A stretch of DNA of 64,000 nt from an uncultured Bacilli bacterium (GTDB lineage: Bacteria; Bacillota_I; Bacilli_A; RF39; UBA660): positions 22,157 to 86,156 of the forward strand of contig CALVUX010000002.1 of the NCBI GenBank assembly GCA_944363715.1, written 5' to 3'. Both the position numbers and the translations under genes were made by a program. The notes below the pieces were generated by a model that searched no databases, had not been told where the DNA came from, and saw nothing but the letters and a program-made list of their open reading frames with translations. Below are positions 4,013 to 56,272 of this stretch, piece by piece; within the stretch, counting starts at the first letter, position 1, and every line of letters begins with the position of its first letter.

Positions 4013-4191
4013 GGCTTTTAAGAGTTCTATTTTTTATCTATAAGGAAATTGCTTTTTATATGGAAAGTTTCTTAATTTAGGTTTAAATAATTGTTAATTT
4101 AAAGAATATACTTTATAGATATAAGTGTGTTACTTGTTTTGTTATCTTAACACTGATATAATTATTTAAAAGTTATACGAGGAGTTTATTT

Positions 4192-30890: not shown

Positions 30891-30944
30891 TTGTTTTCCT
30901 AAAAAATATTTTATGATATACTTAAAATGTAAGGAATGGTAGTT

Positions 30945-34155: not shown

Positions 34156-35370
34156 GTGATGGTAGTGGAAAGTAAGAATAACTTAATGGATAACAAAATT
34201 AGTTATAAATACATTTTAAATAAAATATTTACAGGTTCTTTTTTAGACCATAATCTTGGGCATGAAATTATTAATTTTATAAAAATGGACAATAATAACA
34301 GATATATTTATGTAAATCCATATGGGGAAAGATCTGAACAAGCTGCTAAATATACAGAATATGTGCTTCATATAATGGGAATAGTTTACAAAAACAAGAG
34401 ATATTATGAACTAACTGCAATATCAAGAGTATCAAGAGATTATGTTGGTTATAAAAAAAATAATAAAGAAGAAAAAAGTGAGTTAAAATACAGAAAGTTT
34501 TCTATAAGAAAAATTTTTAACACAAATAATAATGATAGTCGTAGTCATTTATGTACTTTTAAAGCATCTAGTTTTTATAAACCTAAAAAAAGGATTTTAT
34601 TTTTAGTAAATGAGAAAAGACCTAAAATAGTAAATGAAAGTAAAGACATTATTATTGTTAAATTAACCTGTAATCCTCAACATAGTAGAGCATATTCAAG
34701 AGAAAAAGATGTTAAGTTTTTAGATGAGATTATAAATAAATATTTAATTGAAAATAACGATATTGAAATTTGGGATAACTATGAAGAAGAACTATGTTTT
34801 TCATTAATAAGTGATAGAACTAAACTAGAAAATTCTACATCTAATCAAATAGCATATTTTTTTAACAGAGATAAAAAGTTACTTAATAAATTTGTGAAAG
34901 AATTTTTGAAACTAAAAGTAGATGATAATTTTAAAATCATTAGAGAAAAAGAAAATATTGATTTATTACTTGAAGGAGATAATAATGTAATTGTTATTGA
35001 AAACAAAATAGATTCAGGCATTAATGGTAATCAATTAGTAATGTATGAAAAATATATAAAAAATAAGTATGAGAAAAAAGATAAATATTTCTATATTTTA
35101 GAGCCACACTACAGTTCAATAACTGAAGAAGAGAAAAATAAAAATGGTGGAGAACACTATAAAATTTTATATTATGAAGAATTATATAAAGTCTTTAAGA
35201 ATGCTAAATATAGACCTGCTTGTAAAGAAACCGAATATGGTAACTTTTTATTTAAAGAATTTATATATACAATAGAATATATACAAATGTCTAAAACATT
35301 ACAACAAGAGAAAATTGCATATATAAGGTTAAAACAAAGAATAAGTGAATTGGAGGCAAATAGTGAATAG
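34156..35370 (+). CDS. Unknown N-terminal domain fused to a PD-(D/E)XK (PDDEXK_4-like) nuclease module
   Basis: C-terminal NIDLLLEGDNNVIVIENKIDSGINGNQLVMYEKYI matches the D...E-x-K nuclease core followed by QL..Y. The N-terminal ~260 aa are unassigned. Confidence 0.55.
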   Translation: MMVVESKNNLMDNKISYKYILNKIFTGSFLDHNLGHEIINFIKMDNNNRYIYVNPYGERSEQAAKYTEYVLHIMGIVYKNKRYYELTAISRVSRDYVGYKKNNKEEKSELKYRKFSIRKIFNTNNNDSRSHLCTFKASSFYKPKKRILFLVNEKRPKIVNESKDIIIVKLTCNPQHSRAYSREKDVKFLDEIINKYLIENNDIEIWDNYEEELCFSLISDRTKLENSTSNQIAYFFNRDKKLLNKFVKEFLKLKVDDNFKIIREKENIDLLLEGDNNVIVIENKIDSGINGNQLVMYEKYIKNKYEKKDKYFYILEPHYSSITEEEKNKNGGEHYKILYYEELYKVFKNAKYRPACKETEYGNFLFKEFIYTIEYIQMSKTLQQEKIAYIRLKQRISELEANSE

Positions 35371-35422: not shown

Positions 35423-35920
35423 GTGAACGCTGCAAATAGAAATTTAATATCAGGTGGAGGAATATGTGGTGCTATCTATAAAAAGGCAGGATATTCTAAT
35501 TTGAATGAAGTATGTAGAAAAATTAAAACACCATTAAAAGATGGTGATGCTGTACTTACTCCTGCGTTTGATATTAAGAATGCCAAATATATAATCCATG
35601 CTGTTGGTCCTAATTTTAGGTATACTCCTAATGCTTTTAATGAATTGTTTAATGCCTATTATAATTCATTATTATTAGTAAAAGATAATAATCTTCATAG
35701 TATTGCTTTTCCTTTAATTAGCGCAGGAATTCACGGAGGACATTTAGAAAATCCTGCTGCAGTATCAACAAAACAATGTATTATGGCTTATAACAAATTT
35801 GTTGAAAGCTTTCCAAGTTATAATATTCATCTAATATTATGTGCTTATACTAAAGAAGAATTTGATAGTGCAAATAAAATAAAAAGTAATGAAAAAATAT
35901 TAAAAGCAAAAAGTATCTAA
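35423..35920 (+). CDS. Macro domain protein (ADP-ribose binding/hydrolase); N-terminal strand cut off by an in-frame TAA
   Basis: VNAANRNLISGGGICGAIYKKAG, HAVGPNF, IAFPLISAGIHGG. An upstream in-frame GTG at 35363 (after GGAGG) gives NSIFEIKNCSFVE[TAA 35405-35407]NVDVIVNAAN. Confidence 0.65.
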   Translation: MNAANRNLISGGGICGAIYKKAGYSNLNEVCRKIKTPLKDGDAVLTPAFDIKNAKYIIHAVGPNFRYTPNAFNELFNAYYNSLLLVKDNNLHSIAFPLISAGIHGGHLENPAAVSTKQCIMAYNKFVESFPSYNIHLILCAYTKEEFDSANKIKSNEKILKAKSI

Positions 35921-36722: not shown

Positions 36723-36746
36723 TATAGAAATGTTAGGTGAAGTTAT

Positions 36747-37583
36747 ATGAGTGAAAAAGATTTAGATTCTAGTATGAATCCATATCAAGAAGAACAAAAA
36801 CCTAAAGGTTATATAAAACAGTTACAATGGGATATGGCGATAGGATTACAACAGGTAGATAATTTAAAACCATCTAAATATCTTGAACAGGTTAGTGAAA
36901 AAAATATTTTAGGTGAATTAACAATCAAAGAAGTAGAACAAAGTTTAAGAGAATATTACATCACAAAAGAAAAACAAAAAGATATTAATCATAATGAATT
37001 AGAATGTGACTTTGTATCTATGAGAATTGTAGAGTTACTAAATCAAGATAATTTCGAATTATCAGTAGATTATCTAAAGTATATTCATAAATATTTATTT
37101 CAAGATGTTTATGAATTTGCAGGAGAGTTTAGAAAAATAGATTTTTCTAAACATGAAAAAATATTAAATAATGATTCAGTTGCTTATGGAAACTGCAAAA
37201 CATTAAATGAATCATTAGAATATGATATTAGTTTAGAAAAAGAAAAGAATTATAAAGATATGTCCATTGTAGAAGTGATTAAAAATATTACTGATTTTAC
37301 ATCTAGTATATGGCAAGTACATCCCTTTAAAGAAGGTAACACAAGAACAACAGCAATATTTATAGAAAAATATTTAGCTAGTTTAGGATACAATGTAGAT
37401 AATTCATTATTTAAGGATAAATCAGTATATTTTAGAAATGCATTAGTTAGAAGTAATTATTTTAATAACTATTTAAATATAAAAGAAGATAAAACTTATT
37501 TAATTAAGTTTTATGAGAATCTACTACTGGGTAAAAATAATAATTTACATTCAGAAGATTTAATTGTGAAAGAATTGTTTTAG
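36747..37583 (+). CDS. Fic/DOC family protein with non-canonical active-site motif HPFKEGNTRTTA
   Basis: The Fic motif HxFx(D/E)GNGRxxR is present as HPFKEGNTRTTA at ~37321-37356; 278 aa. Confidence 0.8.
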   Translation: MSEKDLDSSMNPYQEEQKPKGYIKQLQWDMAIGLQQVDNLKPSKYLEQVSEKNILGELTIKEVEQSLREYYITKEKQKDINHNELECDFVSMRIVELLNQDNFELSVDYLKYIHKYLFQDVYEFAGEFRKIDFSKHEKILNNDSVAYGNCKTLNESLEYDISLEKEKNYKDMSIVEVIKNITDFTSSIWQVHPFKEGNTRTTAIFIEKYLASLGYNVDNSLFKDKSVYFRNALVRSNYFNNYLNIKEDKTYLIKFYENLLLGKNNNLHSEDLIVKELF

Positions 37584-37592
37584 GAGGATACT

Positions 37593-37910
37593 ATGCAAGA
37601 GTTAACAAAAAAAATTAAAGAGTTTAATGAAGAACGTGACTGGGATCAATTTCATAGTCCTGAAAATTTGGCAAAATCAATATCAATAGAAGCAGGAGAA
37701 TTATTGGAATGTTTTCAATGGAATTCTAATTATGATATTGAAGAAGTAAAATCCGAATTGGCAGATGTGATTAACTATGCATTATTGCTGGCTGATAAAT
37801 TAGGAGTAAATCCTGAGAAAATTGTTTTGGATAAAATGAAAATTACAGAAAAAAAATATCCAGTAGAAAAAGCTAAAGGAGTAAGTACAAAATATACAAA
37901 GTTAAAATAA
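37593..37910 (+). CDS. MazG-like nucleoside triphosphate pyrophosphohydrolase
   Basis: RDWDQFHSPENLAKSISIEAGELLECFQW...ELADVINYALLLADKLG, the all-alpha MazG EExxE...D signature; 105 aa. Confidence 0.8.
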   Translation: MQELTKKIKEFNEERDWDQFHSPENLAKSISIEAGELLECFQWNSNYDIEEVKSELADVINYALLLADKLGVNPEKIVLDKMKITEKKYPVEKAKGVSTKYTKLK

Positions 37911-37938
37911 GTTTTTAATATAGTAAGGAGTATGTAAA

Positions 37939-39816
37939 ATGTTAGTGTATGAGGGAATAAAATCAGGATTTATTAATGATGTCAACTTAAATCTTATTGT
38001 AAATAAAATTTATGAAAAATATCAAAAATATTTTGGAAGAACAAGTGATTCTCAATTAAACTCATGGAAAAATTCTATGCAATATATGCGAGGCATATTA
38101 GATGATAGTGAAATACCAGACAATGCAGGAGTAGCTATTGAATTTAATATTCCGACGACATCTAAAAGAATAGACTTTATTCTATCTGGTAGAGATAGAA
38201 ATAAAAAAGATTCTGTTATTATTATAGAATTAAAGCAATGGGAAAAATGTGATGCAGTAGAAGGAAAAGACGGAATTGTTTCTACTTTTACTGGGCATGC
38301 AATAAGAGAAGTTACACATCCGTCATATCAAGCTATGAGCTATGCTAATTTAATTAAAGACTTTAATGAAACAGTACAGTTAGAAGATATAGGCTTATAT
38401 CCTTGTGCTTTCCTACATAACTATGTATTAAGTGAAGATGATCCAATTTGCAGTAGTCAATATCAAGAATACATAAAAGAAGCTCCAATGTTTGGAGCAA
38501 ATGACTTCATGAAGTTGAGAAGCTTTATAAAAAGATATATTCTTGAGGGTGATGATAGAGAAACTTTATATAAAATTGAAAATGGAAAAATAAGACCATC
38601 CAAAAGACTACAAGACTCACTTACTAAAATGTTACAAGGCAATAAAGAGTTCAACATGATTGATGAACAAAAGGTAATCTATGAAGATGCTATTAGAATG
38701 GCCATAGATACTTTATCAGCAAATGATAAAAATGTATTGGTCGTACAAGGAGGACCAGGTACCGGAAAATCAGTTTTAGCAATTAATTTATTGGTTGAAC
38801 TTACTAACAGAAATATGACTTGTTTCTATGTAACTAAGAATGTAGCACCAAGGGCAGTCTTTAGGGATAAATTAAAAGGATCATTTAAAATGACATATAT
38901 TAATAATTTATTTCAAGGATCAGGACAGTTCACAGAAGCCGAGAGCAATGAAGTTGATTGTTTGATTGTAGATGAAGCACATAGATTAAATGCAAAATCT
39001 GGAATGTTCCAAAACTTAGGAGAAAATCAAATTAAAGAGATTATCAATGCTTCCAATTTTTCAATATTCTTTATTGATGAAGATCAAAAAGTTACACTAA
39101 AAGATATTGGCTCAGTAGATGAAATAAAGAAATATGCTAAAGAATTAAATGCAGGAATAAAAATTGTGGAGTTAGAAAGTCAATTTAGATGTAATGGATC
39201 CGATGGATATCTTGCTTGGTTAGACAATGTTTTAGATATAAGAAAAACTGCAAACTTCGATGGTATGGACTTTGACTATGATTTTAGAGTAGTAGATAAT
39301 CCTAATGAGTTAAGAAAATTAATAGAAGGAAAAAACAAAATCAATAATAAGTCAAGATTAGTTGCTGGATATTGTTGGGATTGGATTAGTAGTGGTAAAA
39401 ATGACTCTAATGTTCATGATATAGTTATTCCAGAATACAATTTTGAAATGAGTTGGAATTTAGGAAATTCACAAACATGGGCAATTGATCCTATGTCTGT
39501 AAATGAAGTGGGATGTATCCACACATGTCAAGGGTTAGAATTTGACTATGTAGGAGTAATAATAGGTGAGGATATTAGATATGAAAATGGAAAAATTATT
39601 ACAGATTATACAAAAAGAGCGAAAACAGACCAATCATTAAAAGGCATCAATAAAATTGCCAAAGAACAGGGTCAAGAAGTAGCAAATGAAATAGCAGATA
39701 AAATAATAAAAAATACATATAGAACTTTAATGACAAGGGGAATGAAAGGGTGCTATGTATATTGTATAGACAAAAAAATACAACAATATTTAAAAAATAA
39801 AATTAGAATAAATTAA
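37939..39816 (+). CDS. DUF2075-type (Schlafen group-3-like) SF1 helicase/ATPase with N-terminal PD-(D/E)XK-like module
   Basis: RIDFILSG...VIIIELKQWE (D...ExK), Walker A VVQGGPGTGKSVLA, Walker B CLIVDEAHRL, C-terminal IHTCQGLEFDYVGVIIG. Confidence 0.8.
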   Translation: MLVYEGIKSGFINDVNLNLIVNKIYEKYQKYFGRTSDSQLNSWKNSMQYMRGILDDSEIPDNAGVAIEFNIPTTSKRIDFILSGRDRNKKDSVIIIELKQWEKCDAVEGKDGIVSTFTGHAIREVTHPSYQAMSYANLIKDFNETVQLEDIGLYPCAFLHNYVLSEDDPICSSQYQEYIKEAPMFGANDFMKLRSFIKRYILEGDDRETLYKIENGKIRPSKRLQDSLTKMLQGNKEFNMIDEQKVIYEDAIRMAIDTLSANDKNVLVVQGGPGTGKSVLAINLLVELTNRNMTCFYVTKNVAPRAVFRDKLKGSFKMTYINNLFQGSGQFTEAESNEVDCLIVDEAHRLNAKSGMFQNLGENQIKEIINASNFSIFFIDEDQKVTLKDIGSVDEIKKYAKELNAGIKIVELESQFRCNGSDGYLAWLDNVLDIRKTANFDGMDFDYDFRVVDNPNELRKLIEGKNKINNKSRLVAGYCWDWISSGKNDSNVHDIVIPEYNFEMSWNLGNSQTWAIDPMSVNEVGCIHTCQGLEFDYVGVIIGEDIRYENGKIITDYTKRAKTDQSLKGINKIAKEQGQEVANEIADKIIKNTYRTLMTRGMKGCYVYCIDKKIQQYLKNKIRIN

Positions 39817-40045
39817 CATAACAAAAATTTGAGATTTTCTCCAACTAGATTAAATATACATTACACAATCGTGTTTCCTTGACAAAAAGGAAAGTTTATT
39901 TGAAGTACTCAATTGGACTGTGATATATAACTTTATTAAATATGATTTTATTGCCGTTACAATAAGAAAATAGCTTTTTTTGCAGATAAAGGAGGCAAGC
40001 TTTTACACGCTGTGAAGATATTGCAAAATTTATTAAATAATTAAA

Positions 40046-40074
40046 AAAGTAGTGAGATTCAAACTCACTACTTT
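40046..40074. terminator. Bidirectional terminator between convergent genes
   Basis: AAAGTAGTGAG / CTCACTACTTT stem with a 7-nt loop, an A-run upstream and T-rich sequence downstream. Confidence 0.6.
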
Positions 40075-40087
40075 ACTTTAATTTTTT

Positions 40088-40312
40088 CTATCCTCGTGGT
40101 GGATAGGGATCGTTACCATAGGAATTACTGCCTTGAATTTTTCCGTTTAATCCGTGAATAATAAGTTCGCTTTGTTGATTTTGTGCAATTCTCTTTCCTA
40201 CTTTAATAGCTTGTTCTTTTGTAGAAAGTATATAGCTAGGTTTAGAATTTCCGGCCCCTAATACATTCCATCCGCCGTTCGGATTATGAGTAATATGGTA
40301 ATTTTTACCCAT
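40088..40312 (-). CDS. DUF2188 family small protein
   Basis: MGKNYHITHNPNGGWNVLGAGNSKPS...TKEQAIKVGKRIA...LIIHGLNGKIQ...YGNDPYPPRG. ATG 40312 follows AAAGGAGGA. Confidence 0.7.
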   Translation of the reverse strand: MGKNYHITHNPNGGWNVLGAGNSKPSYILSTKEQAIKVGKRIAQNQQSELIIHGLNGKIQGSNSYGNDPYPPRG

Positions 40313-40501
40313 AAATATATATCCTCCTTTATCTGCCAAAACTAAAAATTGCTTTTTAGAAAAAGAATGTGATATAATTATGTTGCGGAGAATAACCATA
40401 TCACTTGGCTATTTTCTTTTTTTGTCTTAAGACAATACTATTTTAACATCAAGAGCGGAGCAAAGTCAATATAAAAAAGTTAAAAAAGTTTTCTAAAACA
40501 C

Positions 40502-40530
40502 TTTACTTTGTCCCAGAAAAACACTAAAAT
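40502..40530 (+). promoter_or_regulatory. Possible promoter of the ATPase-protease-AlbA_2 cassette
   Basis: TTTACT (40502-40507), 17-nt spacer, TAAAAT (40525-40530), 17 nt before ATG 40548. Confidence 0.3.
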
Positions 40531-40547
40531 AATAGTAGGTGATAAAT

Positions 40548-41588
40548 ATGAAAAAAATTGATGTTATTAACTTAATCAAATACTATTCAGAAAAGAATGA
40601 TTATGCTTTTAGAAATGAAGCATACAAAATTGCACATGATTTTGACAAAGAAGGAGATATACAACTTGCAGAATATATTATGGCCTTGTTATCAGATACT
40701 AATACATTTGTTCCGCAGTCTTATGATTATTTATCTACTTTTTTTGAAAAAGTAGAAATTACAAATTCTTCTTTACCATTGCCAGAAGTAATTAAAAATG
40801 ATATTTTGGGTATAATTAATGCAATTGGACATAATGTTGGTATTAATAAGTTTCTATTTGAGGGGCTACCGGGGACTGGAAAAACAGAAAGTGTAAAACA
40901 GATTGCAAGAATATTAAATAGAGAATTATATATATCTAACTTTGATGCAATTATTGATAGCAAATTAGGTCAAACTTCTAAAAATATTTCTAAAGCATTT
41001 AATGAAATTAATAAATTACCACACCCAGAAAAAATAATAATTTTATTTGATGAAATAGATGCATTAGCCATGGATAGAATGAATAATAATGATTTGCGAG
41101 AGATGGGGAGAGCTACTTCCACTTTGCTAAAAGAACTTGATAAGTTAAATGAAAATATTGTTTTAATTGCTACTACTAATCTATTTGAATCATTTGATAA
41201 GGCATTAATTAGAAGGTTTGATGCGGTAATTAATTTTAACAGATATAAAAAAGAGGATTTAATTGATGTGGCAGAATCCATTTTAAATGAATATTTGGAA
41301 AAAATAACATGGGCTGCCAAAGATATAAAATTATTTAGAAAAATAGTTGGTTTAATGAACCCATTGATTTACCCTGGAGATTTGAAAAACATAATTAAAA
41401 CTTCATTAGCATTCAGCAACCCATCCAATCAATATGATTATTTAATTAGATTATATGAAGCGATTACATCGAAAAAAATTAATGGTAATATTAAAATACT
41501 GCAAGAGCAGAAATTTACCGTTAGAGAAATAGAACATTTAACTGGAATTTCAAAAAGTCAAGTTTCTAGGGGGCTAAATAATGAATAA
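40548..41588 (+). CDS. Classical AAA ATPase with C-terminal helix-turn-helix (IetA-like)
   Basis: Walker A GLPGTGKTE (~40862-40888), Walker B IIILFDEIDAL, sensor-1 IATTN, Arg finger ALIRRFD. C-terminal FTVREIEHLTGISKSQVSRGL is HTH-like. Confidence 0.8.
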   Translation: MKKIDVINLIKYYSEKNDYAFRNEAYKIAHDFDKEGDIQLAEYIMALLSDTNTFVPQSYDYLSTFFEKVEITNSSLPLPEVIKNDILGIINAIGHNVGINKFLFEGLPGTGKTESVKQIARILNRELYISNFDAIIDSKLGQTSKNISKAFNEINKLPHPEKIIILFDEIDALAMDRMNNNDLREMGRATSTLLKELDKLNENIVLIATTNLFESFDKALIRRFDAVINFNRYKKEDLIDVAESILNEYLEKITWAAKDIKLFRKIVGLMNPLIYPGDLKNIIKTSLAFSNPSNQYDYLIRLYEAITSKKINGNIKILQEQKFTVREIEHLTGISKSQVSRGLNNE

Positions 41589-43818
41589 TTTGATACAATT
41601 AAAGGGTACATTAAATGAAAGGAAAAGTTTTAGCACTCCAGGTCGTTCAACCTTTTCTAAAGGACAATCAACAACATCTAAACATTTAGAATTTTTAAAG
41701 AATAACCTTGAAATGTTATATAGTAAATGGAGTGGAGATAGTAGAATTAATGGAGCATTAGTAAGTGTGTTTTATAATCGAACAGTACCTAAAAGCAAAA
41801 GAATTAAAACATTATTATCTAAAGGCTCTGAACCATCTAATTTATCAATTAAAGGAGCTAGATTTTCGAACGATGGACAAGAAAAACATATTATAACACA
41901 TTTTATAAGTTGTGATACTATTAAAATAAATATAAAAAAGCTAGATAAGTGTATTAAAGTGTTAAATACTTGCTTTAATGGAGAGATAGATAATAATAAG
42001 CTTAAAGAGGTAGACAAGTATAAGTCATTTATAGAAAACAATGAATTAACAATATCTACTTTTATAAATGTTGTGACAGATGCTTGTAACGTGGAAAAAT
42101 TTGATATATTAAATAATACTACAGGGGTTGATATTGACACTAACGATATAATCAGTTTATATGATATAGGAGTCCCGTTAGATGTGTTAATGGAACAATT
42201 GGGATTAACGGATGATGATTATGTAAAAATTTATGATAATAATTTTAGATTCAAAAATACATTTGCAATAAATAAGTTTAAAAAGCAAGTACCATATCTT
42301 ATTTCTATGTCTGTTGCTGATTTAGCACAATATGATTACAATAGTTTCTTTGGACCACAATTAACCTCCGAAATAATAACAATACCTAAACCAAATCAAG
42401 AACCAGTTGTCGGAGTTATAGATACTTTATTTGATGAAAATGTTTACTTTAAAGATTGGGTAAATTATAAAGATTTAGTTGATAAAGATCTCCCAAGAGA
42501 ATCTTGTGATTATGAGCATGGAACAGCAGTTACTTCTATAATAGTAGATGGACCGTCAATGAATCCACAATATGATGATGGATGTGGTCGCTTTCGTGTC
42601 AGACATTTCGGTGTGGCAATTCATGGAAAAAATAGTTCTTTAACAATAATGAGAAATATAGAAGAGATTATTAAGGAAAATCCGGATATTCATGTATGGA
42701 ATTTATCATTAGGTTCATCTTTAGAAATTAATGAGAATTTTATTTCACCAGAAGCAGCATTGTTAGATCGTTTACAAAGTGAGAATAATATTATATTTGT
42801 AATATCAGGAACAAATGATAAAAATGCTACAAAAAGTAAGAAAATTGGTGCGCCAGCCGATTCAATAAATGGTATTGTAGTAAATTCATTAGATTTTCAA
42901 GGTGAAATACCAAGCTATGCTAGAAAAGGTAAGGTTTTGTCTTTCTTTAATAAGCCGGATATATGCTATTTAGGTGGGGATGACAACAAAGGATTTGTTA
43001 CTTGCGTAGGAACGGGAGAAAAACCTGGAATTGGTACATCATTTGCAGCTCCGTGGATTGCTAGAAAAATGGCTTACTTAATTGATATTCTAGGATTGAC
43101 TAGAGAAACGGCAAAAGCTATCCTTATTGATTCTGCAACATCTTGGCAAAAGATTGATAATGATAAAACTGATTTCATTGGCTTTGGTCAAGTTCCAATT
43201 AATATTAATGATATTATACATTCTAAAGATGACGAAATTAAGTTCTATATTGAAGGAACATCAAATATGTATGATACCTATACCCATAATATACCAGTTC
43301 CTATTTATAAAGATAAATATCCATTTATTGCAAAAGCAACATTATGTTACTTTCCAAGATGTTCAAGAAATCAGGGAGTAGATTATACAAATACCGAATT
43401 GGATGTATATTTTGGGAGAATTGATAATAAAGGGAAAATTAAATCAATTAATGAAAATGCTCAATCCGAAGGAGAAACTACGGGAATCAAAGAACAGGAG
43501 GCTAGAAAAAATTATAGGAAATGGGATAACGTTAAACATATTACTCAAATATTAAAACCTAATATACGTCCTAAACAAAAATATGATAATACTATGTGGG
43601 GGCTAAGTATTAAATCTAAAGAACGATTAGAAAAAAGAGATGGTGAAGGAATAAAATTTGGCATAGTCATTACACTAAAAGAAATTAATGGAACTAATAG
43701 AATTTCAGAATTTATTAATCAATGTTCTTTGCGTGGATGGTTAGTAAATGAAATTAATGTAGAAAATAGAGTAGATATTTATAATGTTGCGCAAGAAGAA
43801 ATACAGTTTGAAAAGTAA
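41581..43818 (+). CDS. S8 subtilisin-family serine peptidase with unknown N- and C-terminal domains (IetS-like)
   Basis: Overlaps the ATPase gene by 8 nt (ATGAATAA). Triad: Asp281 VGVIDT (42421-42423), His313 HGTAVTS (42517-42519), Ser487 GTSFAAPW (43039-43041). Oxyanion Asn in WNLSLGS. No signal peptide. Confidence 0.85.
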   Translation: MNNLIQLKGTLNERKSFSTPGRSTFSKGQSTTSKHLEFLKNNLEMLYSKWSGDSRINGALVSVFYNRTVPKSKRIKTLLSKGSEPSNLSIKGARFSNDGQEKHIITHFISCDTIKINIKKLDKCIKVLNTCFNGEIDNNKLKEVDKYKSFIENNELTISTFINVVTDACNVEKFDILNNTTGVDIDTNDIISLYDIGVPLDVLMEQLGLTDDDYVKIYDNNFRFKNTFAINKFKKQVPYLISMSVADLAQYDYNSFFGPQLTSEIITIPKPNQEPVVGVIDTLFDENVYFKDWVNYKDLVDKDLPRESCDYEHGTAVTSIIVDGPSMNPQYDDGCGRFRVRHFGVAIHGKNSSLTIMRNIEEIIKENPDIHVWNLSLGSSLEINENFISPEAALLDRLQSENNIIFVISGTNDKNATKSKKIGAPADSINGIVVNSLDFQGEIPSYARKGKVLSFFNKPDICYLGGDDNKGFVTCVGTGEKPGIGTSFAAPWIARKMAYLIDILGLTRETAKAILIDSATSWQKIDNDKTDFIGFGQVPININDIIHSKDDEIKFYIEGTSNMYDTYTHNIPVPIYKDKYPFIAKATLCYFPRCSRNQGVDYTNTELDVYFGRIDNKGKIKSINENAQSEGETTGIKEQEARKNYRKWDNVKHITQILKPNIRPKQKYDNTMWGLSIKSKERLEKRDGEGIKFGIVITLKEINGTNRISEFINQCSLRGWLVNEINVENRVDIYNVAQEEIQFEK

Positions 43819-43820
43819 TC

Positions 43821-45326
43821 ATGTTAAATATTGATAAAAATGGAAGGAAAAATATGGATAATGATTTAATGTTAAAATATATAGAAAATGAATATGAAAA
43901 TGAATTTTTAGATTTTAAACTTAAACCATATAATTGGCAATCACAAAATGCTAAATCTGATTTTTTAACCGATGTTATAAGTTTAGCAAATTCCTCATCG
44001 GAAGGGGATAAATATATAATTTTAGGGGTGAAAGTTAAAAATAATGGTACTCGTGAAATAAAAGGAATTAATTCAAATGATTTAGTAGATAGTGCTGAAT
44101 ATCAACAACTTGTAACAGAAAACATTGAGCCAACTATAAGTATAGAACTAAAAATAGTTACTAATTCTCAAGGCTTAAATTTTGGAATAATAAGAATTTT
44201 TAATTGTAATAATAGACCATATTTGTTAAAGAAAAAATATGAAAATTTAGAATCGGGCTTTATTAAAGTACGAAAAGGAAGTAGAAATTCAAATGTTTCA
44301 AGATATATATTAGACGAAATATATAATTCAAAAAATCCAAAAAAAGAATCTGTGTTTAAAATTTCTGGTTTAATGGACGGAAAAACTACTGATGTTGTAA
44401 AAGTGGTTAAATATGATTTTTTTCCAAACATGGAAACACGAAAAAATAAATTAATAAATATTTTTAACAAAGTAAATAAATTTAAAATTGATGATATAGT
44501 TGACCAAGAAGAAACGAAATTCAATTTGACTGATGAGAAAAAGAGTTTTTATTCTGCATTTCTTCCGACAGCATTAAAAATAGAAGAGTCAGTACAAAAA
44601 CAGATAGAATCATTTGCCAAAGTATTTAAATTAAAGATATCAAATACGTTTTTTGATCTGGGAAATCTAGTCTCTCAATTAAATGGAATGAAATCAAATT
44701 CGATTTTAGGAATTGTCCCCGAATATAAAATAAGTGGGAGTAAAAAGTCTAAAGAAAAATATGATTTAATAGAAGAATTAAATGAAAAAATAATGTCTAC
44801 AATTTCATGGCTAAAATTTTTAGAAGAAACAGAAAAATTTGGCTTTATTGAATTGGCAATTACTGAAATTGGCAATATATCAGATGAAGAAATAGAGGTT
44901 AGTATTAAGATACCTAAATCTAATTATGTTAGTGAAGATGCCTTTCCAGAACCAGCAGATGATATAATTGCAGAACTAAACGAGAAATACACAGAAAAAA
45001 TGTTTAAACCGTATTATTTGGAAGATATTTCTGACTTTAGAGGGACACCGTCTTCTCCAAGTTATAGCAATATATCATCTATTTCAGGATTGGTAAAAAA
45101 TGATAATGAAATATTTGATGGACCATATAATTATATTGATTATGATGTGAATTATAACAATGAATTTGCTATATTGAGTTTTACAATTAAGAATATAAAA
45201 GAAAAAGAAACTATGATATTTCCCGGGAAAATTTTGATAAGAGGAGAAGTTAATCAACTTAAATATTCAATAATTAGTAAGAATTTAAAAACAAAAGTGA
45301 CGGGAACAATAAATGTTGGAAAATAA
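43821..45326 (+). CDS. AlbA_2 / Schlafen-core-like domain protein with unknown 330-aa C-terminal region
   Basis: Starts 2 nt after the protease stop (alternative ATG at 43854 after GGAAGGA). ENEFLDFKL...FLTDVISLANSSSEGDKYIILGV...GIIRIFNCNNRPYLLKK...GFIKVRKGSRN follows the AlbA_2 (PF04326-type) pattern. Confidence 0.65.
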   Translation: MLNIDKNGRKNMDNDLMLKYIENEYENEFLDFKLKPYNWQSQNAKSDFLTDVISLANSSSEGDKYIILGVKVKNNGTREIKGINSNDLVDSAEYQQLVTENIEPTISIELKIVTNSQGLNFGIIRIFNCNNRPYLLKKKYENLESGFIKVRKGSRNSNVSRYILDEIYNSKNPKKESVFKISGLMDGKTTDVVKVVKYDFFPNMETRKNKLINIFNKVNKFKIDDIVDQEETKFNLTDEKKSFYSAFLPTALKIEESVQKQIESFAKVFKLKISNTFFDLGNLVSQLNGMKSNSILGIVPEYKISGSKKSKEKYDLIEELNEKIMSTISWLKFLEETEKFGFIELAITEIGNISDEEIEVSIKIPKSNYVSEDAFPEPADDIIAELNEKYTEKMFKPYYLEDISDFRGTPSSPSYSNISSISGLVKNDNEIFDGPYNYIDYDVNYNNEFAILSFTIKNIKEKETMIFPGKILIRGEVNQLKYSIISKNLKTKVTGTINVGK

Positions 45327-45670
45327 TAAAACAACTTGCAATCCTCCTCAAACAGAGCTAACATACACTACAAGGAATCGATTTTTATCTAATTATTTTA
45401 AAAGATGATACCCATCGCCCACTAATACAAGAGTCGAATTTTGTATGTAAACAAAGCTAGATTATAGTAATAAAATAAAAAAAATAACAAAAAAATTACT
45501 TTCTAGAGTAATTTTTATTATAATAATAACAGGATTGCTTTTTTGGTAACAACTAAAAATCCATAAAATCTAACTATACAAACATTAGAGCATATGATAA
45601 AATAATAACCATAAAATGAGATGTATATGGATAGTTTTTAAGTATTATGGGAAACTATTACAGAAACTAA

Positions 45671-46093
45671 ATATTTATCTTTGAAAATCCATCTATCTTA
45701 AACTATTTAAAAGATAAAGATTTAGATATTTCTATTATCATCACATCAGGTATTCCTAATCTTGCTTTTTATAAACTATTAGAAAATATTAATAGAAATA
45801 CAACTCTTTATTATAATGGAGATTATGATAAAGAAGGATTGTTAATAGCAGATAAACTAAATAATAAATATAGTAATATCAAATTATTTCTTTATGATAG
45901 AAAAAGTTATCTAAATACTAAAGCTAGTGTTAGTATTAGTAATAATAGACTTCATAAATTAGAACTTGTTAAGTCAAAAGAGTTACAAGAAGTTAAGAGA
46001 TTACTACTTGAAAATAAAAAGTGTGGTTATCAAGAAAATAACTTGCTATCTATAGAAGAATTTATTAAGGATGTGATAAATAGTGAAAACTAA
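45671..46093 (+). pseudogene. 5'-truncated DUF2399/TIGR02679-like Toprim C-terminal domain fragment
   Basis: The frame is open from 45671 with no ATG: IFIFENPSILNYL...IIITSGIPNLAFYKLL...LYYNGDYDKEGLLIADKL...CGYQENNL. It matches the ENP...GxP...Y(H/N)GD(F/Y)D...G...EE pattern of JetD/DUF2399 C-termini. The ~250-aa N-terminal part is missing. Confidence 0.5.
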
Positions 46094-46889
46094 TATTAAA
46101 TTAATAGATAAATGTGTAGAAGATTTTAATGATGTTATTAAAGAAAGAGGAACTTATTATTATAAAGAAAGAAAAGTTAAAAGCATAGTAAAAAACAAAT
46201 CTATTTACTATGCTAAAGTAAAAGGAAGTTATAATAAAAACTATTATGTTAAAATCTATGATAACTTTTTTGTAAATTATGAATGTAGTTGTCCTTGTGA
46301 ATTTCCTTGTAAACATATATATGCTACATTATTAGGTATAGATGAGAAAAAATATAGAAATGTATATTTAAAGAAAAATATTCCTGATATTAATAATAAT
46401 ATAAGTATGCAATGTTTATTAAGAAAGATTCCTAGTAAAGAATTAAAAAAATATCTTATAGATAATACTTTTCTAGAAAATGTAAATTTAAACATAGATA
46501 TGTTAAAAAGCGATTTTTTTAAGTATTTAAGGAAGAACTCTTATTTATATTATTATAATAATCTTTATAATACTTGTATTATAAATTTTGATGTAAAAGA
46601 ATTATTAGATAAATATCTTACAGAACTTATTAATTATATTTGTATAGAAGATTATCAAACTAGCTTTAATATTATAAAAGCTACAATAGAAGCATTATTT
46701 AAGACTAATTATATAAATAAATTAGCAAGGTTTAATGATTTGTTATTAGACTTAGAGTTTTATTTAAAAATTATTTATAGGAGTTATAATACTGATATAA
46801 TAGATAAATGGTTTGAGGTATTAGAAAAAAATAATTATTATAATAATATTTATTTAAAAAACATAATAATAGATGTAAAAACTAAATAG
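46083..46889 (+). CDS. SWIM zinc-finger protein
   Basis: YECSCPCEFPCKHIYATLL (CxCxnCxH SWIM). The GTG start overlaps the preceding fragment by 11 nt. Confidence 0.65.
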   Translation: MKTNIKLIDKCVEDFNDVIKERGTYYYKERKVKSIVKNKSIYYAKVKGSYNKNYYVKIYDNFFVNYECSCPCEFPCKHIYATLLGIDEKKYRNVYLKKNIPDINNNISMQCLLRKIPSKELKKYLIDNTFLENVNLNIDMLKSDFFKYLRKNSYLYYYNNLYNTCIINFDVKELLDKYLTELINYICIEDYQTSFNIIKATIEALFKTNYINKLARFNDLLLDLEFYLKIIYRSYNTDIIDKWFEVLEKNNYYNNIYLKNIIIDVKTK

Positions 46890-46925
46890 TTACTTAATTT
46901 ATATTTAAGCTTATAATAAATAGAG

Positions 46926-47957
46926 GTGAAATTTGTGAAATTATATACAAATGAAATAGTGTTTAGAGGTCATCCTGATAAAGTGTGTGATCAAATTAGT
47001 GATGCTTTACTTGATGCTTATTTAAAAGAAGATAAACAGTCTAGATGTGGTATAGAAGTAGTAGGAGGTAAAGGTAAAATCTTTATTACAGGAGAAGTTA
47101 CTAGTAAAGCTAGTGTTGATGTAGAAAACATTGTTAAAAGAGTTCTAACTGATGTAGGATATGACTCTAATTATGAAATAATTAATAATTTAGGATGTCA
47201 AAGTCCTGATATTGCCATGGGTACTAATGATTTAGTAGGTGGAGCAGGAGATCAAGGTATGATGTTTGGTTATGCTTGTAATGATACTAAAGAATTTCTT
47301 CCTACTGCTATGGTAATATTACAAAGATTTAGTAAATGGTATGATGAGGAAAGACTAAAGTGTTCTTATTTTAAAAGTGATGGTAAAGCAGAGATAACAG
47401 GTTATTATGATGATAATATGAAGTTAAAGAAAATTAAATACTTTACTATCTCTTATCAAAATGATGAGACTCATCGTGATTATACAGATAATTTAATAAA
47501 AGAGGTATGTATAAATATATGTAAAGATTATGAGATAGAAATAGAAGAATTTTTAATTAATCCAACAGGTAAATTTGAAATAGGAGGATTTGTAGGAGAT
47601 GCTGGTCTTACTGGAAGAAAAATAGTTGTTGATTCATATCAATCTTTTGCAAGAGTAGGTGGTGGTGCTTTTTCAGGAAAAGATCCTACTAAAGTAGATA
47701 GAAGTGCTGCCTATAAAGCAAGAGAAATTGCTAAAACTTATCTAAAAAAATATAATTTATCTTGGTGTGAAGTTGTTATTAGTTATGCTATAGGAAAAGT
47801 AGAGCCGTTATCTATTTATATAACTAGTGATAAAGGTGATATAGAAGTAGATAATAAATTATATAGAGAATGTAGTCCTAAAAACATCATTAAAGATTTG
47901 AATTTATTAAACATATGTTATGAAGAGAAAGCTAGATTTGGACATTTCCAAGACTAG
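46926..47957 (+). CDS. metK: S-adenosylmethionine synthetase, short form (343 aa)
   Basis: GHPDKVCDQISDALLD, GEVTS, GAGDQGMMFGYA, SDGKAEIT, GGGAFSGKDPTKVDRSAAY. The start is GTG 46926 or 46935. Confidence 0.85.
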   Translation: MKFVKLYTNEIVFRGHPDKVCDQISDALLDAYLKEDKQSRCGIEVVGGKGKIFITGEVTSKASVDVENIVKRVLTDVGYDSNYEIINNLGCQSPDIAMGTNDLVGGAGDQGMMFGYACNDTKEFLPTAMVILQRFSKWYDEERLKCSYFKSDGKAEITGYYDDNMKLKKIKYFTISYQNDETHRDYTDNLIKEVCINICKDYEIEIEEFLINPTGKFEIGGFVGDAGLTGRKIVVDSYQSFARVGGGAFSGKDPTKVDRSAAYKAREIAKTYLKKYNLSWCEVVISYAIGKVEPLSIYITSDKGDIEVDNKLYRECSPKNIIKDLNLLNICYEEKARFGHFQD

Positions 47958-48062
47958 TTTTTCTTTAACTATAAAATGGAAATAATTGGTAAAATATAGA
48001 TATTTATGACACTTTGCTTTTAAATACATTAATGATATTATAACTAGCACGGAGTTGATTAT

Positions 48063-49051
48063 ATGTCTAAAATAGAAGATGATATAACAAAAGCAGAGTA
48101 TTTAATAGATAATCCAGCTTTTTATAGGAAGAAAGATGATATTTTTGATATGATTTATCCTTTTACAACAGAAAATATAAATGGGATGTTTAGTTATTTT
48201 AATTTTAAAAATAAAGATTGTCTTAGCGTTCTAGGATCATCTAATCAAGTTTTTGATATGTATTTAAGAGGAGCTAAGAGTGTTACTTCTTTTGATATTA
48301 ATCCTCTAACTAAATATCTATTTTATCTAAAAAGAGCAGCTCTTGATGCTAATTTAACTAAAGAAGAATATCTAGACTATTTTTGTCAACGTGGTATTGA
48401 TGACTATACTATTTTTGATGATGACTCCATAAGACCTTTTGATATAAAGATTTTTGATAAAATAGTGCCTTATCTAAAAGGAAATAGTTATAAGTTTTGG
48501 ACTAGTTTATATGATAAGTATAGTTTTTCTACTATTAGAGATACTACAAGATTATTTACTATTGATGAATATTTTAGAGATATTTTAGAAAATATGAAGA
48601 TAACTTTGATAAACTTAAAGAAATATCTAAAAACATTAAGATAACTTTTATAAACAAAGATATTAAAAAATTAGTATTAAATAAAAAATATGACATAATG
48701 TATTTTTCTAATATAGTTCAATATGCTTCTTCTTTATTTTATCAAGATACAATATGTAAAACTGGTCATTTACAAAGAAAGTTCCCACTAGAAACTTTTA
48801 GAAACTACATAATGTCTTTTAAAGATAATCTTAATGATAATGGAATTATTATTATAGGTTACATATATACAATACTTGATGAGTGGGATTCTATTGGAAT
48901 ATTTAATAAGGAAATAAGAGATGAAGTGTTTCCTTTAGATAAATTTGACTATTATTATTTTAAGTCTATTGATTATTATGAAAGTTCTTATACTAATATA
49001 GATTCTAAAAAGGAAAAAGATGCTTGCTTAGTTTATAAGAAAGTTAGTTAG
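48063..49051 (+). pseudogene. DUF3419/BtaA-like SAM-dependent enzyme split by a 1-nt frameshift in an A-run (48589-48592)
   Basis: ORF 48063-48644 (CLSVLGSSNQVFDMYLRGAKSVTSFDINP...YLKRAA) and ORF 48698-49051 (YDIMYFSNIVQY). The second frame is open from 48578 and reads KYEDNFDKLKEISKNIKITFINKDIKKLVLNKKYDIMYFSNI. Confidence 0.6.
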
Positions 49052-50362: not shown

Positions 50363-50407
50363 AAAAAACATAGACTTGACTGTATGTCAAATAAATCTAT
50401 GTTTTTT
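50363..50407. terminator. Bidirectional terminator between convergent DUF362 and sortase genes
   Basis: AAAAACATAGA ... TCTATGTTTTT with an inner TTGAC/GTCAA pairing. Confidence 0.6.
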
Positions 50408-51170
50408 ATTTGCTAAAAATTAATTTACCATGAACTACCATCCTATCATTAGAACCACTACAAGTAGATAGAGTAATTATCTTATCATCAGAGTTTAACT
50501 CTATATTAAAATTATAAGTACTTCTAGTCTTTAAAGTATTTAAAAACTCTAAATATTCATTATCATCTTTAAAAGTTGTTTTTAAATAATAACTTTCATT
50601 ACTAGTTATATAAGTACTAAATACTTCAAAGACATAATTGTTATTTTCTGTAGTTAAATAAATATAATGATTAGTACTTTCTTGATAAGACTTATTTAAA
50701 AGGTTCTTTAAAGTCCCAAACATTGTACCTGTTAATCTGTTATGACCATAAATAATAGTATTATTATCTAAATTGTTAATATTATTCCTATAATCCAAGA
50801 AAATCCAACCTTCTTGGTTTTTATTTTTGTTAAAAGAATGATTTAAGTAATACTCATTATTATTAGACTTAACAACAGGGTAATTTATATTAGTAGATTC
50901 TACTTTTAAATAAGCGACAGTGTCGGAGTTAATATTCTTTAAATTATTTAAGTCTAAATCCATTGTTTCTATGTTTTTATTATCATTAATATCAGAGTTA
51001 ATTTCATCTTCTTTAATATCAATATTATTATCTATTACTTCTAGCATATCTAATGTTTCTTTTTTATCATTATTCCGCTCTAACATAAAATAAACTGCAT
51101 ATAAATTTAAAACTATGATTATTACAATAATAAATCCTAGAATAACTCTTTTCCCTTTTTTCTTTCTCAT
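50406..51170 (-). CDS. srtB: Class B sortase
   Basis: N-terminal TM anchor, AYLKVESTNINYPVV, IIYGHNRLTGTMFG, ITLSTCSG catalytic Cys motif. Confidence 0.8.
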   Translation of the reverse strand: MRKKKGKRVILGFIIVIIIVLNLYAVYFMLERNNDKKETLDMLEVIDNNIDIKEDEINSDINDNKNIETMDLDLNNLKNINSDTVAYLKVESTNINYPVVKSNNNEYYLNHSFNKNKNQEGWIFLDYRNNINNLDNNTIIYGHNRLTGTMFGTLKNLLNKSYQESTNHYIYLTTENNNYVFEVFSTYITSNESYYLKTTFKDDNEYLEFLNTLKTRSTYNFNIELNSDDKIITLSTCSGSNDRMVVHGKLIFSK

Positions 51171-51339: not shown

Positions 51340-54300
51340 ATGAAAAGAAAAAGAGGCAGAGTAATAGCACAAAAAATTAGTTATGCTTTTTTAGCTATTA
51401 TGACTTTCTTTAGTCAAGCAAATTTTTCTTATATGGTTTATGCTTTAGCAGATGATGTTAACTATGATACAATCTCTGTTGCAGATGCTAATACATCTAA
51501 CATTGAAGATTTATATGATAATTCTGAATCTGATGATGGTATGATTATGACTGATAAAAGTGTTGATCATGTTGAAGAAGATTTGTTTGATATTACACTA
51601 TCAGCTTTAGGACAAGCTTTTGAAACTACAAAGACTGTTGCAACTAATAAAAAACTTGATGTTGTTTTTGTCCTAGATGTTTCTGGTAGTATGGATGATG
51701 GTGATCGTTATATAAGTATGGTTAATGCTGTTAATACAGCGATTGGTACTATTATGCGAGCAAATGATGAGAATAGAGTCGGGGTTGTAACTTTTAGTGA
51801 TTCTAGTGATACATTACTTTCTCTTGATTCTTACAGTACAACTAATCAAAATAATAAAAATGATTATTTGACATATGCTGAAGGTTTTCCATTTATATTG
51901 CCACCTTCTATATCAACATCAAACAATTTAAGAGATAGTAATAATGGAAGAGTAAATGAAAGTACTTATATTTATGGAGGTACTTATACCCAAAGTGGTA
52001 TGGCAAGAGGTGCTAATCTCTTAATAAACAATACTGATACTGAAGATAGAGTCCCTGTAATTATCTTATTATCAGATGGTGAACCTACTTATGGTACTAC
52101 AAATTATAGTAATGTAGGTAATTCTAATTTAGGTAGTGGGGGAAGCACAACTGGTCAAATTGGTTATAATACAATCTTAACTGGTAATAGTTATAAAAAT
52201 AAAGTAGAAACAAGATATGGTGAAGATTGTATGTATTATACAATTGGACTTGACGTTACTTCTAATTTTGGAAAGACAGTTTTAAATCCAACTACTGAAA
52301 ACGTTAATAATTTAAGCTATTCAGGAAATGAAGAAAGCTTAAGAAATTATCTAAATAGTCATGATGGTGATTATAATTATGTAGATAAAGCTTATTCTGG
52401 TGCTATGACTAGTGAAGAGTTAAATTCTATTTTCGAAGACATTGCATCAGAAATAATTAAAGGAACATCTAGCCCTGTTGGTGATGGTGATACAAGAGCC
52501 TTAACATTTTCTGATACTTTAGGAAATGGAATGGAAGTTAAGAGTACTCCTATCATAACTTATAATGGACAAACTTATGGTTATACAGATACTTATGAAG
52601 AAACTAATTATACTGCATATATTTATAATCATAGTGTCACAAATAGTGAGGGAAAGACTGTTAATTTATCTGACTTACAAGTTAGGGTTTATCATAATAG
52701 TGACGGAACAGAAACAGTATCTTTTGTAATACCTAAGAATTTATTCCCATTTATTATAAGAGATAAAGAAAACAATGTTAGTCCTATTAGATTAACAACA
52801 AGAGTAGGTCTTAGTGATGAAGCGATAGAAAATTCCAAGACAAAAGATGTATTTTATACAAATAACTTTGCAGATTCTAAAACAACAGCAACATTCTCTC
52901 CTGTAAAAGATAATCCATATTATTATGAAAATATTTCATATAATGAAGATGGAACAATTGCAAGTAGTACACCTAAATATCAAAATAGAAATTTACCTAA
53001 AGATGAAAATGTAACTAATACAAATCCTAATTATTATGATACAACATTTAATAAAGAAACAGGAGTTGTTACAACTGTTCTTGGTAATAATGGTAAAGTA
53101 GTTTTAGATGATCCAGATGAAGTAACATCTAAGACTGTTACTAAAGTATGGGATGATTCTAATAATCAAGATGGTATTAGACTAGATTCTATTGAAGTAG
53201 AGTTACTTGCAAATGGAAAAGAAACAGGTAATAAAGTAAATTTAAGTGAAGAAAACAATTGGACTTATGAATTCACTAATTTACCTAAATATACTGACAA
53301 TAAAGAAATTAACTATACAGTTAAAGAAATAACTAAAGTAGATGGTTATACAACTACTTATAGTGATGATGGACTTACTATTACTAATACGCACGAGGTA
53401 GAAAAGACAACTCGTAGTGTTACTAAAGTATGGAAAGATAATAACGATCAAGATGGTTTAAGACCAGATAGTATCACTGTCGCTTTATCTAAAGATGGAG
53501 TAAGAACTGGTGATACAGCCATATTAAATGAATCTAATGATTGGTCATATACTTTTACTAACTTAGATAAATATAGTAATGGTAAAGAGATTAACTATAC
53601 AATAGATGAAGTAGATGTACCAGAAGGCTATAGTAAAGATATTACTATAAACGATGATGGTTCTACTACTATTTCTAATACTCATACAACTGATAGAGTT
53701 ACAAAGACTGCTATTAAGGTATGGAATGATAAAAATAATCAAGATGGTATAAGACCAGATTCTGTTGTAGTTAGACTTTATGCTAATGGAGAAGCGACTA
53801 ATTATACTGCTACTTTAAGTGAATCTAATAACTGGCGTCATAACTTTACTGATCTTGAGAAAAATGAAAATGGTAAAGAAATAGTATATACAGTTAAAGA
53901 AGAAACTAAAGTAGATGGTTATACAACTACATATAGTAAAGATGGTCTAACTATTACTAATTCTCATACTCCAGAAGTAAGAAGTATTACAGTAGATAAA
54001 GTTTGGGATGATGCTAATAATCAAGATGGCAAAAGACCAGAATCAATTTTAGTTACTTTATATGCTAATGGAGAAGAGAAAACAACTGAAAAGTTAACTG
54101 CAGATAGTTGGTCATATACATTTGAAAATTTACCAAAATATGAAAATGGTAAAGAAATAACTTATACAGTAAGTGAAAGTACAGTTGATGGTTATACTTT
54201 AACTAGTAATGAAATGGTTGGAGATACTATAACTCTAACAAATTCATATACACCAGAAGTAACTTCTAAAACAGTTAATAAAGTATGGGAAGATAATAAT

Positions 54301-56190: not shown

Positions 56191-56272
56191 TTTAGAAACA
56201 TTTGATTTTTAGATGATTTTTTCTAACATATATGATATAGTAATACATGATGTGAAAGGCAGTGGTGTTTCT

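Follow-up and report, generated by a model that had tools for sequence, protein, structure and literature searches.

IetAS systems consist of a protease toxin and an ATPase antitoxin, and defence by these systems requires the protease (PMC13069673). They were originally reported as plasmid-stabilising toxin-antitoxin systems, and the published systems also protect against phage (PMC13069673). In ietHAS, a required third gene that is located in an operon with IetAS encodes a SNF2/DrmD-like SNF2 helicase, IetH (NAR 2026, PMC13069673). RorSlfn5 (pSlfn5; Taboada et al., Nat Microbiol 2026) is a single-gene prokaryotic Schlafen (pSlfn) that combines a Schlafen tRNase with an immunoglobulin (Ig)-like sensor of phage protein (PMC13056530); its C-terminal domain resembles integrin ectodomains and complement C5 and binds a phage tail assembly chaperone, which leads to tRNA cleavage (PMC13056530). 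Here we analysed a stretch of 64,000 nucleotides (nt) from an uncultured Bacilli bacterium (contig CALVUX010000002.1, hereafter the window; AT-rich, with a G+C content of ~27%) in which a gene for an ATPase (gene 1, ietA), a gene for a subtilase (gene 2, ietS) and a gene for a Schlafen-like protein (gene 3) follow one another. An earlier note on this DNA, made from the sequence without database searches, had proposed that the three form one extended defence system. Our analysis indicates that the locus very probably consists of two autonomous defence modules of already described kinds that lie side by side, namely an IetAS pair (~40077-43818) and a single-gene pSlfn (43849-45420).

As the earlier note had it, three open reading frames (ORFs) lie on the same strand at 40548-41588, 41581-43818 and 43821-45326, in one orientation throughout. 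(Genetic code 4, which would match the label Mycoplasmatota of a matching contig, was considered and set aside as irrelevant: under table 11 each of the three genes reads through intact to a TAA stop codon.) The first gene, ietA (40548..41588, + strand), is preceded by the ribosome-binding site AGGTGA at ~40537-40542 and encodes a 346-amino-acid (aa) AAA+ ATPase of the classic clade that matches PF00004 (AAA) at 1.8e-25, above the Pfam gathering score. The Walker A and B, sensor-1 and arginine-finger motifs that had been claimed for this protein could all be located (GLPGTGKT at 106-113 with K112, FDEID at 167-171 with D168/E169, ATTN at 208-211 and RRFD at 222-225). The second gene, ietS (41581..43818, + strand), encodes a 745-aa cytoplasmic S8 subtilase that matches PF00082 (Peptidase_S8) at 1.9e-28, again above the gathering score. 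Its catalytic triad (D281, H313 and S487) is intact and its N-terminus is hydrophilic, without a hydrophobic stretch, in keeping with the prediction that it lacks a signal peptide. The two genes do share the 8 nt described previously, ATGAATAA, with an AGGGGG ribosome-binding site before ietS; other loci also show tight coupling of ietA and ietS, which overlap by 8 nt or 1 nt or lie 4 nt apart.

The suggestion that this ATPase and S8 protease form an IetAS-like pair was confirmed with two sets of models. PADLOC assigned gene 1 to IetA (PDLC02196, 1.6e-43; residues 5-345 aligned with model positions 6-370 of 374) and gene 2 to IetS (PDLC02197, 1.4e-62; residues 262-732 aligned with model positions 245-748 of 749), and the top NCBIfam matches were IteA_antiphage for gene 1 (4.7e-34) and IteS_antiphage for gene 2 (4.6e-45). 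Like IetAS, the pair comprises two overlapping genes in the same order, with the Walker A and B motifs and the Asp/His/Ser triad intact and a protease that is cytoplasmic. Unlike the tested IetAS systems, the window pair belongs to a diverged clade of low-GC Gram-positive bacteria in which a divergent DUF2188 gene usually precedes the pair. Judged by its sequence, the pair represents a diverged clade of the IetAS family and not an experimentally tested orthologue, and such a clade could be of use in mechanistic work.

Two features that had been regarded as departures from known systems turn out to be ordinary parts of the family. A C-terminal helix-turn-helix (HTH) in gene 1 had been called unusual. 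In the corresponding tail of IetA (~315-345) the Pfam HTH matches are sub-threshold (the best is HTH_5, E = 0.0043, 17.3 vs 22 bits), and the tail is covered by the family models, that of PADLOC reaching residue 345 and the NCBIfam IteA alignment reaching the last model position; moreover, in each of the 26 other IetA relatives the alignment extends through residues 341-346. Similarly, the C-terminal ~200 aa of gene 2, described before as a domain without known relatives, fall within the canonical IetS model. The N-terminal 260 aa of IetS lie outside the best IetS model alignments. The closest solved structures to IetA are those of the classic-clade unfoldases AFG2/Cdc48/p97, and the search of solved structures returned none for IetS and only generic AAA+ relatives for IetA.

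From the published IetAS systems we infer, by analogy, the toxin and antitoxin roles of the window proteins and the requirement for the protease. The IetS subtilase would be the toxic effector, and IetA, translationally coupled just upstream, would restrain IetS until the cell is infected or loses the element, at which point proteolysis would be released; cells that contain the protease would need IetA to stay viable.

The third gene had been described as translationally coupled to ietS across a 2-nt gap. This arrangement needs a start at ATG 43821. We place the start of gene 3 at ATG 43854 because of the starts of its homologues (in 26 full-length homologues the start matches the residue of ATG 43854, with a single exception that has its own extension), because ATG 43854 carries the ribosome-binding site GGAAGGA, and because DNA homology to a locus with a closely related gene (L009) begins only at 43849. 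Therefore 35 nt, not 2 nt, separate genes 2 and 3. The corrected gene 3 (43854..45326, + strand) encodes a pSlfn of 490 aa, and its full-length homologues are likewise ~490 aa. It is preceded by the 35-nt spacer (43819..43853), which holds GGAAGGA, and followed by a 94-nt conserved 3' tail (45327..45420, + strand).

The product of gene 3 comprises a Slfn/AlbA_2 nuclease domain (~1-160) and a sensor-like C-terminal region of ~330 aa. The earlier note had recognised the AlbA_2/Schlafen-core fold, and both the Pfam match (PF04326, SLFN_AlbA_2, at 6.6e-11, 43.2 bits vs a gathering score of 25.3) and structure comparison bear this out: an AlphaFold2 (AF2) model of the N-domain, with a predicted local distance difference test score (pLDDT) of 88.4, led in Foldseek to the SAMD9 AlbA_2 effector 7ksp, the bacterial AlbA_2 protein 2kyy and SLFN12 7eg0. 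The signature of active Schlafen nucleases is an Ex4(E/D)xK motif together with a SAFAN-like Schlafen box (PMC13056530). Gene 3 has the motif E15-x4-D20-x-K22 and a Schlafen box, and 27-29 homologues agree without exception at E15, D20, K22, N46 and S47 (ENEFLDFK ... SLANS). In RorSlfn5, which we compared by its published description only, the equivalents of E15 and D20 are found at identical positions, and the nuclease-dead mutant is E15A/D20A (PMC13056530); that of CbCash is E17Q/D22N.

In the AF2 model of the full-length protein (pLDDT 83.8) the C-terminal region mixes long helices with beta-sandwich elements, which may be Ig-like. Its Foldseek neighbours are integrin ectodomains and complement macroglobulin (MG) domains (E 1e-4 to 1e-3, probability 1.0, query template-modelling score (TMq) 0.13-0.18, ~170 columns), and neighbours of these kinds are reported for RorSlfn5 as well. 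Gene 3 differs from RorSlfn5 in its length (~490 aa vs ~380 aa, the latter inferred from a hexamer of 261 kDa) and in having a larger C-terminal region in which helices are mixed with the beta-sandwich elements. A PADLOC model for a single-gene phage-defence candidate, PDC-S50, matches the Slfn domain of gene 3, whereas the C-terminal part is unrelated to it in sequence; a literature search for PDC-S50 found nothing. A profile of gene 3 had no significant match among Protein Data Bank sequences, and gene 3 had no match in a phage collection.

The two parts of the protein also occur apart. Two metagenome loci (L030, 554-2056, and L031, 6242-7756) encode proteins that share the gene-3 C-terminal region (25-30% identity over ~203-488) and have a different N-terminus, which matches PADLOC PDC-S60 at 3.4e-30 and shows sub-threshold similarity to DUF4062, and in L027-L029 the Slfn domain is joined to other C-termini. 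Such an exchange of domains in L027-L031 is what would be expected of swappable sensor and effector modules, and it suggests that a putative sensor domain is common to different effector types. Like RorSlfn5, gene 3 appears to behave as a single gene with an exchangeable sensor and is found in defence islands. Taken together, these sequence comparisons point to gene 3 as a stand-alone pSlfn of the RorSlfn5 type that is predicted to function as a single gene.

By analogy with RorSlfn5, CbCash and SLFN-pAgo, the C-terminal sensor of gene 3 (~330 aa) would bind a phage protein and thereby free the nuclease. The Slfn domain, with its metal-dependent Ex4DxK site, would be the effector, and would most likely cleave tRNA and shut down translation. 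Phage-protein-triggered cleavage of tRNA is thus the most likely activity of gene 3 on this analogy, and its trigger is certainly different from that of RorSlfn5, the host being a low-GC gut bacterium. The gene-3 family is small (~30 clusters), and as a new family of Schlafen defence proteins it would add to the range of sensors known from pSlfn proteins.

One line of evidence for two modules is the distribution of IetAS and gene 3. We compared the window with 26 other IetAS loci at 42-87% IetS identity, which represent ~17 lineages at <80% IetS identity and include 18 reference-genome loci (46-64%), loci on three complete plasmids and, from metagenomes, the closest relatives (87%, 71%, 70% and 68%), and with ~10 other lineages of gene 3 at 29-89% identity. 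A full-length IetA is encoded directly upstream of IetS in 26/26 of the other IetAS loci, and neither a Slfn domain nor a gene-3 relative was found at any of these 26 with tblastn and a domain hidden Markov model. Nor, in the other direction, was IetA or IetS found with tblastn and phmmer near the gene-3 relatives of the ~10 lineages outside the identical island. IetAS stands beside gene 3 only in 100%-identical copies, which represent the same island (L013-L016 and L033).

The relatives of gene 3 are found elsewhere in a variety of contexts, 13-44 nt behind unrelated co-oriented genes and often with a recombinase gene as neighbour. The closest (89%; P0002, in L009) is located behind a GmrSD gene and a gene for 195 aa, the next (65%; P0003) behind DUF2726 and DUF2441 genes, and a third (59%; P0004) behind a serine recombinase gene. 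A relative at 50% (P0009) has an unrelated context, one at 40% (P0025) adjoins an integrase gene, and the metagenome lineages at 29-33% are again in unrelated contexts. The genes upstream in L004, L007, L009 and L010, though of similar size (~170-200 aa), are mutually unrelated. (A conserved partner of gene 3 was also considered and rejected: when the flanking ORFs of 16 gene-3 loci were clustered, only recombinases recurred.) The earlier note had held the third gene to be fixed in a three-gene system, and had itself named gene-3 homologues without linkage to ATPase-S8 pairs as evidence that would speak against this; such homologues are what we found.

The second line of evidence comes from the points at which DNA homology begins and ends. 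At the locus with the 87%-identical IetAS (L055), the DNA match to the window covers 40249-43818 and ends exactly at the ietS stop codon. At the locus with the 93%-identical gene-3 cassette (L009), the match covers 43849-45420 only, and so takes in gene 3 together with 5 nt before it and 94 nt after it. Since DNA homology ends at 43818 in the one and begins at 43849 in the other, the junction between the modules is located within the 35-nt spacer. Furthermore, two loci (L048 and L056) retain the arrangement MazG-DUF2075...IetA-IetS at ~71-75% nt identity without gene 3, which argues that gene 3 joined an older arrangement. The proposal that the protease acts on the AlbA_2 protein in a three-gene mechanism is unsupported by these data, given that the genes do not co-occur and the breakpoints fall within the spacer. 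The locus provides a clean natural case of defence-island modularity, with boundaries at 43818/43849 and 45420 that are defined at the level of base pairs.

The right end of the cassette, at ~45420 (...GATGAnnnCATCGCCC), is common to four contexts that diverge beyond it. The 3' tail, whose extent follows from breakpoints in L009, L033 and L013, ends in ...AAAAGATGA(n3)CATCGCCC at ~45420 and has counterparts at 9473-9567 in L009 and ~10746-10840 in L033; its predicted fold is not significant (z = -0.72), and an Rfam scan of 39800-46200 returned no RNA family. The earlier note was right about a hairpin downstream of gene 3 and wrong about its position, which is 45491-45516 (+ strand) and not 45505-45530. 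The hairpin has an 11-bp stem of nearly all A-T pairs (fold -7.6 kcal/mol, z = -3.19) and is possibly a weak terminator; a terminator scan gave no call for it. It belongs to the backbone beyond the cassette slot, and it also follows an extra GmrSD cassette in L013 (8116-10242), where an inserted 609-aa GmrSD gene separates the positions that correspond to 45438 and 45466 of the window. The same GmrSD family is the one found upstream of gene 3 in L009.

The site just past the ietS stop codon resembles a slot for cassettes: five related lineages have five different genes there, three of them within 12-35 nt. In addition to gene 3 in the window, these are genes for a transmembrane-like protein 12 nt from the stop codon (slot at 3570-3582 in L055), a KAP NTPase at 31 nt (slot at 7370-7402 in L056), a NUDIX protein at 176 nt (slot at 8229-8406 in L058) and an unknown protein at 485 nt (slot at 8226-8711 in L059).

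Several points weigh against the view that two described kinds of module stand here side by side. The comparison loci are mostly metagenomic and amount to a sample of tens of loci, not a census. The equivalog cut-offs of NCBIfam were missed widely by both proteins of the pair (118.1 vs 510 bits for IteA and 154.1 vs 900 for IteS). For gene 3, the Ig-like label of the C-terminus is derived from low-TM matches to a region that also contains long helices, and the PADLOC PDC-S50 match covers the N-domain only (1.1e-18; residues 15-159 aligned with model positions 7-150 of 387). Finally, only 35 nt and no terminator separate the modules, which hence are probably co-transcribed, and some functional interplay in this particular island is possible. 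On the combined sequence evidence we nevertheless predict that gene 3 is functionally independent of IetAS. Transcription of gene 3 is probably by read-through from ietAS, since beyond the 5 nt noted above the cassette has no upstream DNA; this would amount to shared expression and not to a shared mechanism.

Among the alternatives, the one that survives best concerns the role of the pair itself: IetAS may serve here chiefly to stabilise the mobile island or a plasmid by addiction (post-segregational killing), and not as a phage sensor. Consistent with this idea, IetAS first became known through plasmid stabilisation, and relatives are found on 64 plasmid records, including those of C. perfringens (where some stand beside ParB), Carnobacterium, Macrococcoides and Agrobacterium. 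In addition, a block of 8.7 kb that extends from a Fic gene to gene 3 (36728-45420) is 97.6% identical between the window and L033 (CASEIJ010000049.1, labelled uncultured Mycoplasmatota); its left breakpoint precedes the Fic start codon by ~20 nt. The flanks of this block differ between the two genomic backgrounds, and therefore the island moves between genomes. However, the pair is surrounded by genes of defence type (Fic/PDC-S72, an Nhi-like helicase, DUF2188/PDC-S16 and the pSlfn, with GmrSD in the sister island), and the published IetAS systems protect against phage. The two roles are not mutually exclusive, and we regard a mainly addictive role as possible, with the balance of the evidence somewhat against it.

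A second alternative keeps the modules independent and adds local cooperation, in that a promoterless gene 3 would be expressed from the IetAS operon and the two systems would complement or reinforce each other's protection of this host while staying physically and biochemically uncoupled. The short upstream DNA of the cassette (5 nt) speaks for this, as do the relatives of gene 3 elsewhere, which also lie close behind unrelated co-oriented genes. Synergy has, moreover, been measured between IetAS and unrelated systems, such as Zorya II. On the other hand, a promoter within ietS, towards its 3' end, is possible, promoter-like hexamers being present everywhere in this AT-rich DNA. We consider cooperation of this kind unlikely.

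It is very unlikely that gene 3 encodes a nucleic-acid-binding regulator and not a nuclease, in the manner of many AlbA_2 proteins with an HTH or with the annotation 'ATP-binding protein'. The tblastn matches to gene 3 on plasmids, which are confined to the N-domain, do carry the label 'ATP-binding protein', and the top structural match, 7ksp, is a DNA-bound SAMD9 domain; but the Ex4DxK nuclease motif and the Schlafen box (SLANS) are fully or almost fully conserved in the gene-3 family, a Pfam scan found neither an HTH nor a GHKL domain in gene 3, and the contexts of the gene are defence islands and mobile elements. Least tenable, and likewise very unlikely in our view, is an obligate three-gene system in which IetA would sense infection and IetS would activate or destroy the AlbA_2 protein as sensor or effector: the genes are co-oriented across a short spacer that lacks a terminator, the trio stays together in every 100%-identical copy and ietHAS provides a precedent for IetAS with an added gene, but there is no co-occurrence in either direction outside the identical island, an IetAS at 87% identity and a gene-3 cassette at 93% identity occur separately with breakpoints within the spacer, the families differ in size by >100-fold (>7,600 detectable IetS homologues against ~30 gene-3 clusters), and proteins with the architecture of gene 3 act as single genes. 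Had it been true, gene 3 would have been a candidate substrate or effector for IetAS; this reading does not hold.

A gene that accompanies the IetAS pair with more regularity is found on its other side. A DUF2188 gene (40088..40312, - strand; PF09954 at 1.6e-19, PADLOC PDC-S16 at 1.8e-31) encodes 74 aa from M30 of a 103-aa ORF, and it is likewise called as 74 aa in L013-L016. It is present at the same position in L055 (2-64), L056 (3643-3867) and L059 (4505-4738), and in L056 and L059 DNA homology to the window begins at 40077, just beyond DUF2188. Thus, a divergent DUF2188 gene precedes ietA in 4/5 lineages of the window's clade. In another IetAS clade the equivalent position is occupied by DUF3892 (L040, L042, L044, L045, L051, L046 and L035). 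More generally, a small divergent gene recurs 150-450 nt upstream of ietA; elsewhere there is a gene for an HNH protein or a Cys-rich protein, or none. With tblastn, no relative of the window DUF2188 was found near the reference-genome IetAS loci, and it was seen only in the closest metagenomic relatives. Linkage to this IetAS clade is more consistent for DUF2188 than for gene 3, though not universal.

DUF2188 and ietA diverge from an intergenic region of 235 nt (40313..40547), which presumably holds the promoters. The earlier note had seen a promoter-like region ahead of the three genes. Promoter-like hexamers are present there (for example at 40502-40530 on the + strand and 40469-40440 on the - strand), and the number of promoter-like matches in the region is not above chance (52 vs 48.3 in shuffled sequences). 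Both DUF2188 and DUF3892 belong to families previously linked to defence, and the small divergent gene may regulate or assist IetAS, or it may be a defence-island gene that hitch-hikes with the pair; that it recurs at this position offers a modest lead for testing. A more elaborate proposal, which we offer tentatively and think rather doubtful, is that DUF2188(-)/IetA/IetS form an extended unit with DUF2188 (or DUF3892 in the other clade) as regulator or accessory, and that the slot after ietS swaps promoterless single-gene defence cassettes, such as those for pSlfn, the KAP NTPase, the transmembrane protein and NUDIX, that are expressed by read-through. If this were true, IetAS would be a platform for the expression and stabilisation of variable cargo.

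The island probably spans ~31 kb to ~45.4 kb of the window. An AAA/TniB-like ATPase is encoded at 30936-31877, and upstream of IetAS follow genes for a PDDEXK_4 nuclease (34156-35370), a Macro domain protein (35423-35920), Fic (36747-37583; PADLOC PDC-S72), a MazG-like protein (37593-37910; no PADLOC match) and a helicase of the DUF2075/SLFN-g3 type (37939-39816; PADLOC AbiO, Nhi and PDC-S41-like). An IDF...ELK motif near the N-terminus of the helicase looks like that of a PD-(D/E)xK nuclease, which would make the protein Nhi- or AbiO-like. The pair formed by the MazG-like and DUF2075 helicase genes is also found in L048 (~1917-4750) and L056 (1137-3356) at ~71-73% nt identity, with the helicase split into two ORFs in L056. 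By coincidence, counterparts of both halves of eukaryotic Schlafen proteins, AlbA_2 and the group-3 helicase, are thus separate genes that flank IetAS here.

The window resembles ietHAS in that a helicase gene precedes ietA, at a distance of ~730 nt; L048 and L056 also have this gene near IetAS. Unlike IetH, the window helicase is a superfamily 1 DUF2075/Nhi-like protein, is separated from ietA by a gene on the opposite strand and is absent from most IetAS loci; moreover, no SNF2 gene adjoins IetAS in the window and gene 3 does not encode a helicase. (At 56213-59416, ~11 kb downstream, lies a gene for an SNF2 helicase of 1067 aa that includes SNF2_assoc and SWIM domains; it is not adjacent, and so is not a partner of the ietH type.)

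Beyond the hairpin, the region 45640-46093 contains short broken frames (an 84-aa ORF at 45839-46093, with ...NGDYDKEGLLIADKLNN... upstream) that run into a SWIM gene; this region has no Pfam match and may be the remnant of a decayed gene. The stretch 46083-49051 encodes a SWIM zinc-finger protein (46083-46889), a short MetK-like S-adenosylmethionine (SAM) synthetase (343 aa, 46926-47957) and the products of two small ORFs, one of which has a DUF3419 (methyltransferase-like) match. The SAM synthetase is oddly placed, and the region could be another module of the island. Further downstream, genes for a sortase at 50406-51170 and for a Cna_B/VWA surface protein of 1601 aa at 51340-56145 suggest that the host is a walled, low-GC Gram-positive bacterium.

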